Shown: positions 41,191-61,721 of the stretch, in pieces
Numbering within the stretch: the first letter of the stretch is position 1
Layout: each line of letters opens with the position of its first letter
Assembly: GCA_051047955.1 (NCBI GenBank)
Contig: JBPGPT010000025.1
Coordinates: 62,001 to 126,000 of the forward strand
Origin: Cystobasidiomycetes sp. EMM_F5
Lineage: Eukaryota
Length of the DNA stretch: 64,000 nucleotides
Reading direction: 5' to 3'
The notes under the pieces: model-generated
What the model was told of the DNA's origin: nothing
The model's input: the letters and a program-made list of their open reading frames with translations, nothing else
The model's database searches: none
Translations under genes and position numbers: made by a program

Positions 41191-44100
41191 TCACGGCAGG
41201 TAACCCATCCCTGGCAGGGAGGTGCCAGGTGTAGAGGTCGAGATAGCTGCATTGTAGGCCTGAATCTCTGCAAGGCCCGCAACATAGATACCAGTAGCCA
41301 TAGTGGAGACGGTAAATCTAAGAGAAGTCGTAGTCTTGCCAGAAGATCCGAGACTGATAACGGTCCCCTGTTGAGACACAGCCGGCACTTGAATTGTACT
41401 GCCATCGGAGAAAGTCAGGTAGCCCGTCTTGATGCCGCCGCTAGTACCCTGTCGGTCATATAGAACGACGGATTGCATGGAGTAGCTAGAGGGAAAGGTC
41501 AATTGCACCCCTGCAAGTGTATTAAAGAGTGAGTAACCTGAAAGCGGAGATAGTGGTCACATCGACTCACATGCGCCCACACCTCCAATGCCGAAAACAG
41601 CCCATTCGCCTGTACCGCTGCGGATGACACCATCGTTGACACCACTTGCAGGTGCTCCGCTTCCGCTCGAAGAAGCAGACGCAGTACCGCGTCTGGCTAG
41701 ATTTGATGTCGCTGCTGGCGCTACTGAGCTGCTAGTTGTGCTGGAGGGGGAGGTGGATGTCGTTGATGGTCGTGAAGATGTGGAGGTTGTTGATGTCGTT
41801 GTTGGACGCATTGATGTGGAGGAAGCCGTTGTAGAGGGTGATTTTGTGGAGGAAACGCTGCTGCCGCTGCTTGCACTTGAAGGTGTCGTGCTAGTTGAGC
41901 TAGACGTGCTGGTAGGTGTACTTGCCGTGGAGGGCACAGAGGACGGCAGGGCTGACGTCGATATAGTCGAGGTGCTCAGTATAGCAGGAGCAGTCGAGCC
42001 GGAGCTTAAACTCGACGTTACGGCGGGTAACGAAGTCGACGAGCGGACGCTGGTGGCAAAACCTGAAGAAGTTGTGGAAGGTATGACTGGCAAAGTACTG
42101 CCAGTCGATGTATTCTGAGACACTTGCATACTAGTCGGCGCAATACTCGATGAGTTTTGAATCGAAGGTACTGTGGTATTGGCAGCAATGCTCCAGCTAG
42201 ATGTTACAGTCGCAGTAAAGTTGCTGATAACGCTCGTAGTCCTGTTAGCAAACGGTGGCGCAGTCGAGTTGGCCATGCTGTACGTAGATGTGATTGTTGC
42301 CGTAGCAGTAGTACTCGAATTAGAGACTGACAATGTGGTAGCATTCGGGAAAGTAGTATTCGAGGTGATCGTAGTCGTAGAGTTAGCCAGACCGGTAGGC
42401 AAGGAGGTGGTGTTTGTTGGCAGACTTGTAGGTGATGAGGTATTGGCAGTGGCCGTTGCATTATTCGCCAAAGTGTTATTGATGGCGGCAGGTAAAGCTC
42501 TGAGAAATCGTGCAAGTTGTATGATATTGTTAGCGCTGTGAGCCTTAGCTACAGCTATAGAAATCCAACGTACGGCGTATAGGTTCCCATGACAACTAGC
42601 TCACTTAATCCAATATTATTAGAACTGGACGAAACAGAGTTGACGGTAAAGCGCAAAGATGTCGTGGTGATGTTGCCAGGCAAGGCGACAGGCGTAGCTG
42701 AACCGTCGTTGGCCAGTGTACCGACAGGCACAGACTGACCATTGCTGAATGTCATTGTTCCGCTAGTAATTTGATCCTGATATCAATCGGCAGCGTCTCA
42801 GTCAGTCCGTGTATCACAAGCGCTTAGACCAGTGACTCACATATGGATTCGGCCGATCGTACGCGATGACGCTTGATACGACCACGCTTTGATTCCAGGT
42901 GAGTAGAAGGTAGGCTCCGGCTCCCTGCTTGTTGGTTGCCCATTCGACTGTATAATTACCCGGATAGCCGCCGAGTACACCATCGGTAGCCTTCTCTGCG
43001 CCTTGATCGACAGAGCTAGAGCTGGCAGACGCGGCCGCTAATCTCGCTAGGTCGCCATAGAAGATCGGGGTGGATGTGCTATTGGTGTTACTGGTACTGT
43101 TAGTGGTGCTGCCAGTGGTGCTGTTGGTAGTCGAGTTGCTGCTAGGCGCAGGAAGCGTGCTATTTGTAGACGCACTGCGAAGCCGGGCGCTAGGAGTTAG
43201 TATGTAATTTTGTCTCCTCACGCTATGGCTCCAACAAATTACCTTGTAAATGTGCCCATCACCACCAACTCGCTCAGACCAACATTTTGCGTTGACGACG
43301 AGACGGAATTGACCGCAAAGCGCAAGGACGATGTGGTGATATTGCCTGGCAAAGCTACTGGGGTGGCGGATCCATCGTTTGCTAAAGAACCGACTGGGAT
43401 GCTTTGCCCATTGCTAAATGTGATGGTACCGCTGGTCACTTGATCCTGGAATTGACAAAGGTCAGCAGGTCAAACTATGCAAAGATTGCGTTCCGACAAC
43501 TCGCCAGTTGATTGGGCCTATCATACGCAGATATGCTTGAAATTACCACGCTCTGGTTCCAGGAGAGCAAAAGATAAGCGCCAGCACCTTCTTTCTGTGA
43601 CGCCCATTCTAGTGTGTAATTCCCCGGATACCCGCCTATTTGGCCATCAATCGCCTTTTGAGCACCTTGATCCGGGCTGCTCGAACTAGCGGAGGCGGAA
43701 GCGAGTAACGCCAAGTCACCATAGAATACAGGCACGGACGGGCTTGTACTGTTGCTAGTCGTCGTACTGTTACCAGTGGTAGTTCCGTTGACATATGTAC
43801 CATTGTTGGCGGTCCCATTATTTACCAGGCTGAGTACAGTAGCTAATAAGCTTCACATCATCAGAAGATCGAACCTCGAGCGCTTGCCTGACAAAAGAAC
43901 CCATAACCACCAACTCGCTCAAGCCAACATTTTCGGTCGTAGAGGAGACCGAATTAACGGCGAAACGCATAGATTTCGTTGTAACATTTGGGGGGAAGAT
44001 AATCGGCGTGGCAGACCCGTCGTTATTGAGCTGGCCGACTGCTACTGTCTGCCCATTGTCAAGAATGAGACTGCCGCTGAGGACCTGATCCTGCAGACGT

Positions 44101-46120
44101 TCAATGCTGGTACATCAGTAATGCATTCAGACAATCTTTGGCCTCTGACTTGCCAGATTGTTAGGCCTGTCGTAGGCAGTGACGGAGGAAATGGACACGC
44201 TTTGATTCCACGTTAATTGGACCCACGCTCCAGCACCCTGCTTGCTGCTCGCCCATTCTTGAGTATAATTTCCAGGATATCCACCGATGAGACCATCGTT
44301 CACTTTTGCGGCACCCTGACCGTCTCCAGCGGAGCTCGCTGACGCGGCAGCATACAGAGCGATATCGCCATACCAAGCCGGAACAACAGAGCTGGTCGAG
44401 CTGTTAGTAGTAGGATTAGTGCCGGTACCGCTCGATCCGCCAGTACCGATAGGCGAGCCCGTGCTATTGGTTGTGGGTGTGCTTGCATTACCAGCTATGG
44501 TACCAATAACCACAATTTCCGATAGTCCAATGTTGTAAGTATTGCTGCTAACTGATCCAACAGTGAAACGAAGGGACGAGGTAGTTTTGTTGCCCACGTT
44601 GATGGAGAACCCAGTCTGTCCATCGTTCGGCAGAGTGCCAACCGCTACCGACGACCCATCGTCAAATGTCAAGGTTCCAGACGTGACTTGGTCCTGTGCA
44701 GTAAAACCATTTCAATCACGTAGGCATCAGTCATTATAATCAGTAGGGCTTACATCAGGATTCGGGCGATCGTATAGTGTGATGAAGTTGACTGCTACGG
44801 GTTGCGACCAGTTAAGATTCAGCCACGCTCCAGCGCCTTGATGGTTGGACGACCATTCCTTGCTCGGATCGCCTCCGGCATTGGTAAAGCCGCCGATAAC
44901 AGCGTCAATAGCAGCAGATGCTGGTTGGCCTTGTGCTGCCGAGCTTGCTGTTGCAGTTGCCAGCAATGCCAGATCGTTACTCCAGGATGAATGGGGTACG
45001 GTTGTCGAATTGTTGGAATCGCTGTCAATGACACTTCCGGTCAGTACTTGTGCAGGGAAAATACGGTGATCTATGCGCGAGGGCAACCTACTTGCTGACA
45101 TAGGAGCCCAGCACAACCAGTTCGCTCAATCCAATACTTGTCGTTGATGACGAAACTGAAGTGACTGTCAAGCGTAAAGATGTTGCTGTGATGTTGGAAG
45201 GCAGATTGACCGAAGTAGCCGAGCCATCTTGTATGAGGGGTCCAGTTGAAAACGTTTGACCAGTGTTCAGCTTTATTGTAGCACCTGTAATCTGATTCTG
45301 GTGACACGTGGATAGTCAGTCGTGTTGACGAATGCCGCTTTGTAAGCTCGCTTACTACTGTGCTCGGGCGGTCGTAAGCCAAAATGTTGGATATCTGTAC
45401 GGCTGAAGGCCAGCTCAGCTCTATCCAAGCACCCACTCCTTCACCATTTGTAATCCACTCGACTGTAGGATCTCCGCCAGTTGCATTTTGACCTCCAAGC
45501 TGTCCATCGATGGCCTTCTCGGGTCCAGATCCAGCAATTGATGAACTAGCCTTGGCAGATGCCAAAAGGGCAATGTCATTCACCCATAAGAAAGATGTAC
45601 TGGAATTTCCAGTAGAATTAGGCATCGTCGCATTGGCTAGGGTTCCGAGTACTGCAACTTCGGCTAGACCGATATTCACAGTTTTGGCAGACACCTTGTT
45701 GAAATTGACTTTGATGGATGCGGTTGTCTTGTTACCGATCGGAATAGAGTATGCACCCGCTGAGTTGGGCAGTTGTCCGAAGGCTATGATGGAGGCGTCG
45801 TCGAATGCGACTGTGCCACCCACAGCGTTGTCCTGCAGATGCAAATTCAATCACGAGGAGTGCACGCAAAACTCAGAGATAAGGCTCTTACATTCAGATT
45901 TGGCCGATCGTACAGAATAATGTCCGTGATGCTGATCGGAGCAGGCCAGCTCATTTGCAGCCACGCCCCTACGCCTTGACCGTTAGACGCCCATTCTTTT
46001 GATGCGTCTCCTCCGATCCCCCCATACCCATCGACCACACCGTCTATCGTAGCTTTCGCCAATGAGCCCGTTGTTTCGGAGCTTGCGCTTATCGAAGAAT
46101 TCATGGCAATATCATTTGCA
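41191..46120 (-). repeat. Seven intragenic domain repeats: approx. 46120-45640, 45590-45095, 44990-44500, 44375-43890, 43730-43243, 43065-42573, 41705-41250
   Basis: Aligned by eye from the translated exons; repeats 4-6 are most similar (GGYPGNYT.EW; GSATPVALPGNITT.SLRF in 5 and 6). Confidence 0.85.
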
Positions 46121-47154
46121 GCGGACCAGGCGGGAGCAACGTTGGTTGAGAATGTTTGAGCAAGCTGTGGAGATGTCATGTACTGCCTTGCGAACCAGAG
46201 AGACTCCTGCTGCGACGAGCACGCAGACGCGCTTTGACACTCGTTTGAGTCGTAAGGGGTGTAAGCAAAGAATGTTGCAGATTTGGCCTGCGTCTGCGCA
46301 CTGCTGAGTGTAGCAGGAAAATTATCTAGTAGAAAACGGCCGCTTCAGATTGAATAGCTTGATCAAGGAGAATTGAAATCATCCTACTTATCGTATAGCC
46401 CATGAATCCTTCTAGTGAAGCAGACCCAGCGTACGTACCAACTAATTCTTGCGTGATGCGGCCAGTCGTCAAATGATCCGTGTGATCGCCACAGCCGTAG
46501 GAGCTAAGATAGTCGAGCGTGACCACATCTGAAGGCTTAGCGGCGGACATGACTGCAGCAATGGATTGTTTGAGAGCTGCGAGGGTATAGGTATTGCTGC
46601 CATCGAGACTGGTGACGGAGGACACGCCGCCTGTATACAGATTATACAGCGATTGAGAGCCAGTGAAGCCGCTTCCATCGACGTTTCCGTCCGGTATTCG
46701 AAGGTAGATATTTTGGATCCTAGGGGACGCGTTGAGGACTGAAATGACGGCATTCGCACTCCCCAATTGTATTGTCGAGCGGGCTGCGAAGGCGGATTAT
46801 TTCATCGTAAAAGTCAGCTTCCGGGCCCTCTTAGGCTAGTGTTGCAAGCCTTTACTCACTCCAAGCGTTTGTCACGCCGGCCATCTGGGCTTTAGCAGCC
46901 TCGTTGCCCTGTTCGCGACTTTGCGTATACGACATCCCTCTCCCCGCATCTCCAGCGACCAGGATAAGTGTCGTGAAGCAACCCGACTGAACGCGAGGAG
47001 CGATATATGGCGATTGGAAGAGAATGTCATCGTCCGCGTGTGCGACTATCGAGAGCGTTCCGCCGATACATGCCAGACTGGCAGCTTCTAGCCCTACGAA
47101 GGCGGTTGTTGCGAGGGTGAGCGATTGCAAGCAGATCCGAGTTGACCACTTCAT
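41191..47154 (-). CDS. Large secreted PIG-L/LmbE-family (CE14-like) de-N-acetylase with seven galactose-binding-like (F5/8C/CBM32-like) repeats and a Ser/Thr-rich stalk
   Basis: Signal peptide MKWSTRICLQSLTLATTAFVGLEA; PIG-L motifs SIVAHADDD, LVAGDAG, SREQG, LRIPDG, DHTDH; then ~130 aa repeats (D(L/I)A..A.ASASS...AIDG..GG.....EW....G.GAW..L.W......YDRPN|DQ..SG...F..G...L.NDG...GLSE..V.G). Confidence 0.85.
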
Positions 47155-59310: not shown

Positions 59311-61611
59311 CTAACCTTCGGCCGCGGCGGGAGCCTCGGGATTGCGTTTGCCAGCTTGCGTCAATGCTTCGAGAAGAGTAACGTAGCCTTTCCATGCATC
59401 GACCACTCCCATCTGTCGTTTCACCATTCCTGAAGTATATCTCTGAACAGCCTTTCTGAAGTCATCGACCTTTTCGCGATCCAAGCGTTGCAGTTCTCGC
59501 TTCAGTAATGAAGAGGTTTCTTCAAAATCGCGCTTGGTAGAAATCGCTTTGCGCTCGGACTGAAAAGTACATGAATCAGGGCGACCGCCTTGCACATTTA
59601 TAATGGATACTCACCTCAGCAATCTCGAATAGGGCGTGTGTGGTCAAGTCTGGATTAGTGCGCGCTTGCTTCTTTGCTTTGTCTTGGTTGGCTCGAGCTG
59701 CTTTGACTGCATTCTCGGCGCGCTGCCATGTGTAATATACCTTTATGCGAGCCTGGAATGCCATCTAATATTATCCGCGTCAGAACGACAGCAATAAAGG
59801 ATACAGATTAAAATGTCACATACCCGTATGCTGCCGATCAGTCTCATGTACTGTTCAGCGGTAACGAGAAGGACAGCCTCCTCTTCGCAAGCAAGCTGGT
59901 CAAAAGCTTCAGCTCGCATGCGCTGCAGTTGAGCGAGATGATTGACGGCGTCCTTCACGGGCTGACTTAATTCGCAGGTTGACATGGCATTCAAGGCGTT
60001 TGCTAATTCGGTTGAAGAAGCTGCAGTAGCGCCTCGGAGCTTGATTGAAGTCGCCAAAGAAGCTGTGAGAGCCTTTATAGATGTCTCAAAGGCATCTGTC
60101 GACGACCGGCGGGCCTCGAAAAAATCGTCAAATTCGACAAAGCGGGGAGAGGTCAAGGAGGACAGGGAAAAGAAGCGTGACGCCGTAGATGTCGATGCAT
60201 CGGGAGAAGAAGCTGCCTGTATCGCAGCGGAACGGTGTTTGATGTCGGTATGGAAAGTATCGCTTTCGAGAAACAAGCGAAGATCAGGATCGGTATACAG
60301 CATATGATGCTGAAGTATGTGAGTTAGGCATGACTGCAGAGCAAGCCGTCTAGACTCCACGAAAGATTGAGAGAAGCGGCCTAAGCGGTGTGTCAGCGAA
60401 AAGTTGCAGCTGACACGAATGAGATCCACCTTACCGACAACAGCCTTGTCTGGTGGTGGCGGAACCACCACGCCTGGATTATTTTCGTTGAGCCGCTCTA
60501 CAAGCCACAGGAAATCTCTGAAGCGCCGCAAGACTGAAAAATCCTTTTTCCGAAACGCCGTGCTTGAGGTGCGTGTGCGGACCGTATACACGGTATGCGA
60601 TGTGAGAGGGTCTCCGAGCGAGAGCGTCGAAGATACCTTGGTCGGATCGCCTACCGTCACGACGAAGGACGGCCGCCCAGAAGGCTCGTCCTCGAGATTG
60701 GGCGTAAAACTTTGCGGCTCTGGCCTGATTAGCATGCCAGGCTGACTGCGGACGCTGGCAACGTCACTTTCGAGTCCGATGGTCCGGATACTGCCAGTAT
60801 CATCGTGATGGTCGCCGGCATGTAGGTATCTCTTAGTAATCAACCCATTGTCCAGCGAGCCATTGGCATGTGGTTGATTGTCTTCATCGATCGTCGTCGT
60901 ATGATGATGTGCCGGACGTGGCTCATCGTGTTCACCGAAGCCCCCAAGCTGGTCTATGTCCAAAACGGGAACCTGCGACTGTATTCGATGATCCTGTTCG
61001 GTCCACGGGGACTCCATGGGTTCTCGGTGCGGGTCATTCTGAGTGTAGCCGTCTATGCTATTGACCGATGACCGCCTGGTGAGAAACTGCGGGTCTGCAT
61101 TTTCGGCTATGCGAGCTTGAGCGACGCCGTGCATGATAGCTTCTGGCAATGTCGCGTTATCAGCAGCTACAGCCCGCACGTCGAGCTCTGAAGTCGTCCG
61201 CGAAGCCATGGGACTGACGACCACTCTGTCGTTGTCAGCTTCGGCGCCCGCATCCAACGAGGACGAGCGCGTCGAGATGTTGAGAGCTTCGCTGGCTACG
61301 CTGTTATCGTTAGTCGCAGCAGTCTTTCCTGGCGAGGTCAGTCCATTCTGATGCGGCGACGTCAAGGTCGATATCGTGTCGGCGGATGCAGCGATGGCGC
61401 TGTCGTAGTCTCCAAAGGCAGCTACACCGCTGCTCTGCAAGTCTGCAAACGGGTTGCTGCTCATCCCGTCGTCCCACGGAGCTCCAAAGCCATTATTGCT
61501 GCTGATGATTCGCGGTGACCGCGGTGACCCGCTCGCAGACAGGCTGCTCCCTCGTCTGATGGCCCCGCTGGGCGACGTCGGGGCGCCAAACAGGTCATCA
61601 AAGTCGTTCAT
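59311..61611 (-). CDS. VPS5: Sorting nexin Vps5 (PX + BAR), retromer
   Basis: FVVTVGDPTKV...HTVYTVRTRT...FSVLRRFRDFLWL...NPGVVVPPPPDKAVV|GRF...FVESRR..L; DPDLRLFLES; BAR helices ELQRLDREKVDDFR. Confidence 0.92.
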
Positions 61612-61721
61612 GGTTTCATGATTGGCCGGTCGAAAGTCAAAAGCGGAAGCCAAGTTTGGTTTGTGCGATAGTATTCTGCAACAACACTTTGATTACGTAC
61701 GTACACTGCACATCCGCCTTC

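Follow-up and report, generated by a model that had tools for sequence, protein, structure and literature searches.

The described deacetylases of the LmbE/PIG-L superfamily (CAZy family CE14) include MshB, BshB, BC1534, the archaeal diacetylchitobiose deacetylase and the teicoplanin deacetylase Orf2*. These are cytosolic proteins of ~220-300 amino acids (aa) that lack binding modules and have small-molecule substrates; to our knowledge, every CE14 deacetylase studied is a small intracellular enzyme acting on small N-acetylglucosamine (GlcNAc) conjugates. Gpi12 is a small enzyme of the endoplasmic reticulum (ER) membrane that acts on the cytosolic face. A 64,000-nucleotide (nt) stretch of contig JBPGPT010000025.1 (assembly GCA_051047955.1, positions 62,001 to 126,000) from Cystobasidiomycetes sp. 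EMM_F5, hereafter called the window, contained a gene at 41191..47154 whose predicted 1715-aa product combines a PIG-L/LmbE-type catalytic domain with seven lectin-like modules and a Ser/Thr-rich stalk. The product is probably an exported, heavily glycosylated, metal-dependent LmbE/PIG-L de-N-acetylase with a CBM32-like array, derived from the old transfer of a bacterial cassette. The gene is no invention unique to its lineage; it represents, in fungi, an exported and uncharacterised branch within a superfamily that is already known. All coordinates of the gene are window positions on the minus strand.

The catalytic domain spanned aa ~26-230 (46388..47079), and each of its exon halves gave a sub-threshold match to Pfam model PF02585. 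Intron 1 (46784-46859) interrupts the domain, and the halves scored 22.1 bits (exon 1) and 25.7 bits (exon 2) against a cut-off of 28.2 bits; in the 37 relatives scanned, the same model passed its cut-off every time (29-62 bits). Both metal-binding motifs named in an initial annotation of this DNA, HxDD (AHADDD) and HxDH (DHTDH), were found intact, as VAHADDD at aa 37-43 and GDHTDH at aa 197-202. Within AHADDD (aa 38-43; 47026..47043), His39 and Asp42 are predicted to bind metal and Asp41 to be catalytic, roles that we take to be those of the MshB family. The HTDH motif (aa 199-202; 46473..46484) would provide the second metal-binding His. Among 224 family catalytic domains, 32 positions were at least 90% conserved, and 30 of these were kept in the window protein, including H39, D41, D42, D198, H199, D201 and H202. 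The two departures, T to V and L to I, were both conservative. The columns of A38, H39, D41 and D42 were kept in 219-221 of the 224 members, and D201 and H202 were invariant (224/224). C-terminal to the domain, the catalytic module continued in a conserved extension (aa 231-295; 46132..46325) with the pattern K..A.F.AY..D...C.....C....W..R.Y, identified by comparing the gene model with alignment A3, which consisted of twelve short family members. The proposed role resembles that of fungal CE4 (NodB-type) chitin deacetylases, which remove N-acetyl groups extracellularly from N-acetylhexosamine (HexNAc) polymers of the wall, but their fold is unrelated and no NodB/Polysacc_deac_1 match was found at E ≤ 0.1 in a Pfam scan of the 14 exon translations.

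That scan matched DUF7402 (PF24135) on 11 exons, forming seven modules. Half-modules scored 54-87 bits against a cut-off of 27 (82-87 for N-terminal halves and 54-72 for C-terminal halves where these were scored separately). Six modules lay in tandem, each split by a phase-0 intron: module 1 (aa 296-439; 45641..46131; intron 3), module 2 (aa 457-599; 45103..45589; intron 4), module 3 (aa 615-757; 44499..44987; intron 6), module 4 (aa 798-937; 43896..44378; GC-AG intron 7), module 5 (aa 974-1113; 43251..43729; GC-AG intron 9), and module 6 (aa 1158-1297; 42582..43065; intron 11). Module 7 (aa 1562-1697; 41248..41715) was divergent and lay behind the stalk. Identities among the modules ranged from 81% (5 vs 6) down to 30% (1 or 2 vs 7). 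The six tandem galactose-binding-like domains and the divergent seventh domain described initially thus correspond to DUF7402 modules 1-6 and 7.

The fold of the modules was examined on a bacterial proxy, a Nakamurella module aligned with the half-modules of the window (37-55% identity), whose model had a predicted local distance difference test (pLDDT) score of 90. This model matched CBM32 modules, lectinolysin and fucolectins with template modeling (TM) scores of 0.64-0.78 and E-values of 1e-8 to 1e-6. The CBM32 matches included NanJ, GH84C, AlyQ and the chitosan-binding DD1/DD2 of Paenibacillus IK-5, the last with the highest identity (24-25%). Judged from this proxy, the DUF7402 modules are predicted to adopt a beta-sandwich fold like that of CBM32. 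The F5/8 type C model PF00754 reached 23.9 bits (E 4.9e-5) on the best exon of the window, below its 28.2-bit cut-off, while whole modules of relatives passed that cut-off (e.g., 104.9 bits in the relative P0008). A weak match in the window and a strong one in relatives indicates a relationship of fold and clan, and not family membership for the half-modules tested. Described CBM32 or F5/8 type C modules (Clostridium perfringens NanJ, the GH84C CBM32, DD1/DD2) share with the window modules the predicted beta-sandwich fold, but differ in sequence (14-25% identity), and Pfam keeps DUF7402 separate. The sole mention of DUF7402 found in the literature searched, which left subscription journals outside, was a predicted K+ binding for the domain, in a paper that lists UniProt A0A0K3CMM4 among DUF7402 proteins.

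In modules 1-6 the phase-0 intron fell at an identical point, after YDRPxxx, and phase-2 introns followed modules 2, 4, 5 and 6. This shared pattern is expected if exon pairs were duplicated after the introns had been acquired. Intron 13, within module 7, was in phase 1 and at a position unlike those of the introns in modules 1-6. Units 4-6 were 58-65% identical at the DNA level and their introns were no more alike than unrelated introns, so these duplications were not recent.

The protein began with a leader of ~25 aa (MKWSTRICLQSLTLATTAFVGLEAA; 47080..47154), delimited by hydropathy and by the N-termini of homologues. It is a probable signal peptide, ending just before a conserved Cys29-x-Gly-Gly; homologues had a similar leader followed by C-x-G-G. 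The N-terminus was the sole hydrophobic stretch of the 1715-aa protein. The Ser/Thr-rich stalk (aa 1300-1575; 41674..42499), recognized by composition and without a Pfam match, comprised 276 aa, of which 53% were Ser or Thr, and held 14 of the 49 NxS/T sequons of the protein. Exon 13 (309 aa) as a whole had no Pfam match. By Kyte-Doolittle hydropathy, the last 40 residues contained no hydrophobic signal of the glycosylphosphatidylinositol (GPI) type: the highest 12-residue mean was 1.36, inside module 7, and the protein ended in the non-hydrophobic ...STPGTSLPGMGYLP. In this it differs from the GPI-anchored mannoproteins of fungal walls. The leader, the Ser/Thr stalk of ~270 aa with its sequons and the missing C-terminal transmembrane or GPI signal agree with what the initial annotation had reported, the function of the leader as a signal peptide being the inferred part.

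Relatives were collected with a profile built from P0001 and exons 1 and 2, searched exhaustively against 1.84 billion representative proteins. P0001 is a 245-aa metagenomic fragment that is 55% identical to exon 2. In total, 1847 proteins matched at E ≤ 1e-3, 1238 at E ≤ 1e-10 and 410 at E ≤ 1e-30; the best 150 of the 1847 all had E ≤ 9.4e-40. Pfam found PIG-L in 37 of 37 longer matches and DUF7402 in 32. The top-ranked of these carried 4-9 DUF7402 copies and nothing typically bacterial; the lower-ranked carried, in addition, PKD, Big_9, SLH, TIG and other modules of the kind seen on bacterial surfaces. In species-representative genomes of bacteria and archaea, at least 613 pattern matches included at least 448 relatives. 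The best 78 loci were 30-44% identical to P0001 and came mostly from Actinomycetota (Curtobacterium, Modestobacter, Cellulomonas, Actinoplanes and others) and Saccharibacteria/Patescibacteria, with a few from Chloroflexota, Acidobacteriota and Rhodobacterales.

Bacterial PIG-L-DUF7402 proteins, with or without PKD, Big_9 or SLH (e.g., Nakamurella leprariae L004, 862 aa, and Modestobacter italicus L007), shared with the window protein the catalytic subfamily, the conserved positions, the DUF7402 modules (37-55% identical to those of the window) and an extracytoplasmic location. They differed in being intron-free, in having 1-4 DUF7402 modules, often with PKD-type spacers in place of the stalk, and in carrying wall anchors such as SLH, and they often lay beside glycan-synthesis genes. 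Genes for GT2, GT4, Wzx-type (Polysacc_synt), GtrA or ABC-2 proteins were found within 5 kb in eight of 15 diverse loci (L001, L003, L004, L005, L036, L062, L068 and L076; 99 of 109 candidate open reading frames (ORFs) scanned) and were absent in seven. A single N-terminal hydrophobic segment was present in all four actinomycetotal proteins whose N-terminus was checked. In Saccharibacteria, the PIG-L domain followed 9-10 predicted transmembrane segments in three of three proteins examined (L062:3078-5798, L068:3135-5777 and L076:3201-5822), the transmembrane part having no Pfam match. The leaders and transmembrane fusions, together with the neighbors, indicate that the site of action of this domain is extracytoplasmic and that its gene often lies among genes for envelope glycans.

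The Saccharibacteria forms directly followed GT2 and/or GtrA genes, an arrangement that looks like a module for transferring and deacetylating lipid-linked sugars, possibly analogous to a NaxD/LgmC-type pathway. A leaderless protein of Oceaniglobus trochenteri (Rhodobacterales; L075:5079-8033) started directly with the catalytic domain and continued with RTX calcium-binding repeats, which suggests type I secretion.

Two structural comparisons placed the catalytic domain among the LmbE-fold deacetylases. Both used a model of P0001 (51% identical to the window catalytic domain) built from alignment A3, with a mean pLDDT of 78. In Foldseek, the first 12 ranked chains were LmbE-fold deacetylases (E 1.6e-4 to 1.8e-3; TM 0.35-0.46), among them BshB, MshB, BC1534, diacetylchitobiose deacetylase and TT1542. 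In VIA-align, the top 22 Protein Data Bank (PDB) entries all had the LmbE fold, with Z-scores of 9.8-11.5 and root-mean-square deviations of 2.8-4.0 over 146-161 residues; the next entries scored 7.6 or less. An LmbE-type alpha/beta fold is accordingly predicted for this proxy and, by way of it, for the window domain. A small-profile search found no PDB sequence match at E < 0.7, and NCBIfam has no equivalog model for the family, none of seven queries giving a meaningful match there (the best was BshB1, with 16.8 bits against a 182.5-bit cut-off). The link to characterised enzymes is therefore at the level of fold and of the AH(P/A)DD and HxDH motifs, at 12-22% identity, and the gene belongs to a distinct, uncharacterised branch of the superfamily.

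In the mechanism proposed here, His39, Asp42 and His202 would hold a divalent metal, and Asp41 would act as the general base in hydrolysing the N-acetyl group of a GlcNAc or N-acetylgalactosamine (GalNAc) residue. Through the module array, the enzyme would stay attached to a glycan outside the cell, which could belong to the wall or matrix of the fungus itself or to a foreign surface. The stalk would space the catalytic head (aa ~26-295) from the terminal module, a possible attachment point. The same architecture might instead serve small soluble or lipid-linked GlcNAc substrates outside the cell, such as chitobiose, chito-oligomers, glycosides or glycolipids, with the DUF7402 array merely positioning the enzyme near a source of such compounds. 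The structures closest to the catalytic proxy are all small-molecule enzymes (diacetylchitobiose deacetylases, BshB, MshB and teicoplanin deacetylases), and the Saccharibacteria fusion of 9-10 transmembrane segments beside GT2/GtrA would suit a HexNAc substrate linked to polyprenyl phosphate. An array of seven CBM32-like modules with a stalk, however, is usual for enzymes directed at polymers or surfaces, and Z-scores of 10-11.5 do not discriminate between substrates. A small substrate, the leading alternative, is on balance unlikely.

The preferred reading, an exported polymer- or surface-directed de-N-acetylase of bacterial descent, has several points against it. The characterised LmbE-fold deacetylases known to us all act on small GlcNAc conjugates and not on polymers, and the tie to them is at the level of fold and motif. 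Both structural models are of proxies and not of the protein's own sequence. The two PIG-L exon halves were scored separately and each fell under the Pfam cut-off. The count of glycan-gene neighbors in bacteria is a raw one, made without a background control and with 10 of the 109 ORFs dropped. Reading frame and homology are the sole basis of the gene model, the three GC-AG introns included. Finally, the phylogenetic trees described below are unrooted, place the fungal clade with poor support (80-91) and establish neither a donor nor the direction of transfer.

A different possibility is that multivalent binding, as a lectin or adhesin in cell-cell contact, biofilm or host-surface attachment, is the main role of the protein, and that its catalytic domain only binds or is marginally active. 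The seven lectin-like modules make up most of the protein mass, and the comparison of fungal relatives showed that internal modules expand independently in each lineage, as they do in adhesins. In a DUF7402 tree of 72 modules, internal modules mostly clustered by protein: window modules 4, 5 and 6 formed their own clade (support 99), and the internal modules of P0143, P0010 and P0152 likewise clustered within their proteins. On the other hand, at least 219 of the 224 family members, and the window protein too, retained the catalytic and metal-binding residues, which points to selection for catalysis, and the short members from Ascomycetes have no part other than the catalytic module. A mainly adhesive role is very unlikely.

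The fungal relatives also brought one correction: the gene is no one-off giant but has its counterpart in a conserved family of Microbotryomycetes whose proteins are laid out in the same way. Of 30 matches looked up, 14 had an organism name and all 14 were fungal (10 Microbotryomycetes, three Ascomycota and one chytrid). The Microbotryomycete matches were from Microbotryum silenes-dioicae, M. intermedium, Microbotryomycetes sp. JL201 (two), Rhodosporidiobolus microsporus, R. azoricus, R. ruineniae, Pseudohyphozyma (two), Rhodotorula babjevae and Phenoliferia psychrophenolica; a protein of M. lychnidis-dioicae was also met, as a cluster member. The Ascomycota matches (Lepidopterella, Trichodelitschia and a Trichoglossum metagenome-assembled genome) were short, at 261-304 aa, with the catalytic module alone, and the chytrid match was from Zopfochytrium. 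One of the 16 remaining matches was labelled only as an "LmbE family N-acetylglucosaminyl deacetylase". In the ESM Atlas, a mainly Ascomycete cluster of 66 members (~277 aa) was nearest to P0001, which serves as a lead only.

With local profiles, the layout of the window protein was found in seven of the 27 other proteins of the fungal clade (P0152, P0010, P0003, P0007, P0008, P0005 and P0006): the catalytic module comes first, 3-6 copies of DUF7402 follow, and after a long Ser/Thr-rich stretch or gap there is one final DUF7402. The eight terminal modules behind the stalk, from the window and these seven proteins, formed one clade in the 72-module tree (support 99). This terminal clade, together with the clustering of internal modules by protein, indicates that the stalk and terminal module are ancestral to the window lineage and the Microbotryomycetes, while the internal array expands lineage by lineage. 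The module tree and the module intron pattern also bear out the later intron gain and repeat expansion that had been suggested.

The closest named relatives spanned 1300-1900 aa and are uncharacterised; examples are KDE08721.1 (MVLG_01176) of Microbotryum lychnidis-dioicae (1915 aa), GAA5824582.1 of Rhodosporidiobolus azoricus (1622 aa) and KAI5475263.1 of Pseudohyphozyma (1539 aa). These giants share with the window protein the leader, the catalytic module, several DUF7402 modules, a long Ser/Thr stretch and a distinct terminal DUF7402 orthologous to that of the window, and their catalytic domains fall with it in one fungal clade. The window catalytic domain, in contrast, was at most ~50% identical to theirs, and within the fungal clade the window gene and P0001 branched apart from the named proteins. 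Modules 4-6 were duplicated inside the window's own lineage. The window protein also lacks the short tail, hydrophobic or with Cys, in which several of the giants ended.

Such tails followed the terminal DUF7402 in P0010, P0003, P0007, P0004, P0008 and P0005, some with Cys and some rich in Gly/Leu, and could be signals for GPI attachment or other anchoring. In M. silenes-dioicae, P0002 (1365 aa, g02873) and P0151 (341 aa, g02871), compared with P0152 of M. lychnidis-dioicae (1915 aa), are probably the front and the stalk-plus-terminal end of one protein whose annotation was split.

A FastTree phylogeny was made of 224 catalytic domains, comprising 146 database matches, including the window model, and the 78 bacterial loci. 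The window gene fell in a clade of 24 rows (support 100) that contained all named fungal proteins and none of the 78 bacterial loci, and within this clade it paired with P0001 (support 97). A quick IQ-TREE analysis of 70 chosen rows (LG+C20+F+G4, PMSF) likewise gave one fungal clade, of 20 rows (SH-aLRT 99). The clade attached next to Geodermatophilaceae and Nakamurella in the FastTree phylogeny (support 87-91) and to other neighbors in the quick IQ-TREE analysis (80-85). The family is broad in bacteria and patchy in fungi, the fungal members form a single clade, and DUF7402 is already present in the bacterial proteins, all of which argues for a bacterial origin. As the bacterial proteins already carry DUF7402, enzyme and binding module probably moved together. 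The most likely history, with its direction inferred, is one old bacterium-to-fungus transfer of a catalytic-plus-DUF7402 cassette, which would then have gained spliceosomal introns and grown by exon-pair duplication. The bacterial origin considered possible at the outset stands as an affinity to a mainly bacterial family and not to Gpi12-type proteins, and the direction of transfer does not follow from unrooted trees. The catalytic-domain phylogeny proposed there as a check gave one fungal clade in an otherwise bacterial family; being unrooted, it does not strictly show that clade nested within bacteria.

The coding region, spliced in silico, consisted of 14 exons running from the ATG at 47154 to the stop codon at 41193-41191, a total of 5148 nt and 1715 aa. 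It was obtained by chaining minus-strand stop-to-stop frames from 47154 to 41191, which were separated by short gaps with splice-site consensus. Exons 1-5 lay at 47154-46860, 46783-46388, 46325-45892, 45832-45356 and 45297-45092; exons 6-10 at 45021-44754, 44693-44154, 44090-43888, 43829-43505 and 43445-43243; and exons 11-14 at 43189-42841, 42776-42574, 42499-41571 and 41510-41191. The 13 introns were 53-76 nt each, 10 of them GT-AG and three GC-AG. The GC-AG introns were intron 7 (44091..44153; donor GCAAGT), intron 8 (43830..43887; GCAAGC) and intron 9 (43446..43504; GCGAGT). When the sequence was read by eye, no GT donor was found that could replace these three and preserve both the frame and the module alignment. 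All three fall in the region of modules 4-5, and three of 13 is a seemingly high share for a fungal gene.

Homologues supported the junctions of introns 1 and 2. P0001 crossed the junction of intron 1 unbroken (...NAW|T|RSTIQL...) and ended at the end of exon 2. The junction of intron 2 was supported because exon 3 (SAQTQAKSATFFAYTPYDSNECQSASAC...WFARQY) supplies exactly the stretch that is conserved after the catalytic domain in alignment A3. Two acceptors were ambiguous, each having a second one in frame: intron 10 may end at 43190 or 15 nt downstream (43189-43175), and intron 12 at 42500 or, 36 nt upstream, at 42536, which would make it 38 nt long. As a result, the linkers after modules 5 and 6 may differ by 5 or 12 residues. 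An alternative 3' end with a hydrophobic tail, in which a GTGACG donor over the stop codon would lead into a downstream frame containing ...SVCNLLFASIIL..., was rejected; the donor lacks the G at +5 and the downstream frame continues for ~60 more residues.

It is most improbable that the model merges two or more genes, or that it describes a decaying pseudogene whose GC donors are broken splice sites. Such an explanation could draw on the GC donors in three of 13 introns and on a word-index search of 231-2000-aa database proteins, which found no match to exon 2 at full identity and returned only P0001, so that the gene itself was not met under any independent annotation. The joined exons, however, had no internal stop or frameshift across 5148 nt, all 13 introns were 53-76 nt long with consensus-like ends, and the GC donors sat in a strong GCAAGT-like context. 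Moreover, the independent annotations of other fungi gave single proteins with the parts in the same order. In tblastn searches with the catalytic module and modules 4 and 7, no second copy of the gene was found in the 64-kb window; the matches were confined to 41248-47154.

That the protein is fungal Gpi12, the GlcNAc-phosphatidylinositol de-N-acetylase of GPI-anchor synthesis, with which it shares Pfam family PF02585 and whose UniRef name four relatives carry, is extremely unlikely, since Gpi12 is small whereas this protein of 1715 aa combines seven lectin-like modules with a stalk, a leader and 49 sequons, the PIG-L model is only near threshold in its relatives, and its nearest non-fungal relatives are exported bacterial proteins (30-44% identity to P0001). 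The UniRef name in question, "N-acetylglucosaminylphosphatidylinositol deacetylase", was assigned automatically, two of the four relatives being giant multi-module forms, and is probably an over-annotation from the PIG-L domain.

The gene belongs to a large exported and lectin-decorated branch of at least 410 sequence clusters at E ≤ 1e-30, on which no experimental work was found in the literature searched. The search combined PIG-L, LmbE or CE14 with secretion, fungi, CBM32, discoidin, Microbotryum and gene transfer and found nothing relevant, subscription journals lying outside it. Two leads for CE14 were rejected: in PMC7559091 "CE14" stands for a 14-day crude extract, and PMC12823222 names CE14 once, as not secreted. 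If surface polysaccharides are de-N-acetylated by these proteins, cationic glycans of the chitosan-like or galactosamine (GalN) type could arise by a second route that has no relation to CE4; such glycans matter for fungal wall architecture, for adhesion and for escape from the chitin receptors of a host. In addition, the fungal branch is a clear candidate for a case in which an enzyme and its binding module passed together from a bacterium to a fungus and the gene later acquired introns and duplicated exon pairs. A bolder proposal, which we regard as speculative and quite unlikely, is that Pucciniomycotina took the bacterial cassette into a new, CE4-independent class of wall-displayed polysaccharide de-N-acetylases. 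Module 7 would then be a GPI-independent, non-covalent wall anchor, and the array would tune which HexNAc polymer turns cationic, as glucosamine (GlcN) or GalN. Tractable relatives in Rhodotorula and Rhodosporidiobolus make the function testable.

The frames neighboring the gene in the window were those of a usual eukaryotic genome, coding for a UCH protease, NF-YA, proteins with an FF domain or an F-box, a PX/Vps5 sorting nexin and a GT1 protein. They point to a basidiomycete in or close to Pucciniomycotina whose proteins lack a near named relative in the database, in keeping with the separate branch of the window gene in the fungal clade: the best named relatives of the Vps5/PX sorting-nexin frame (59743-61692, minus strand) were from Microbotryomycetes and were only 42-46% identical.

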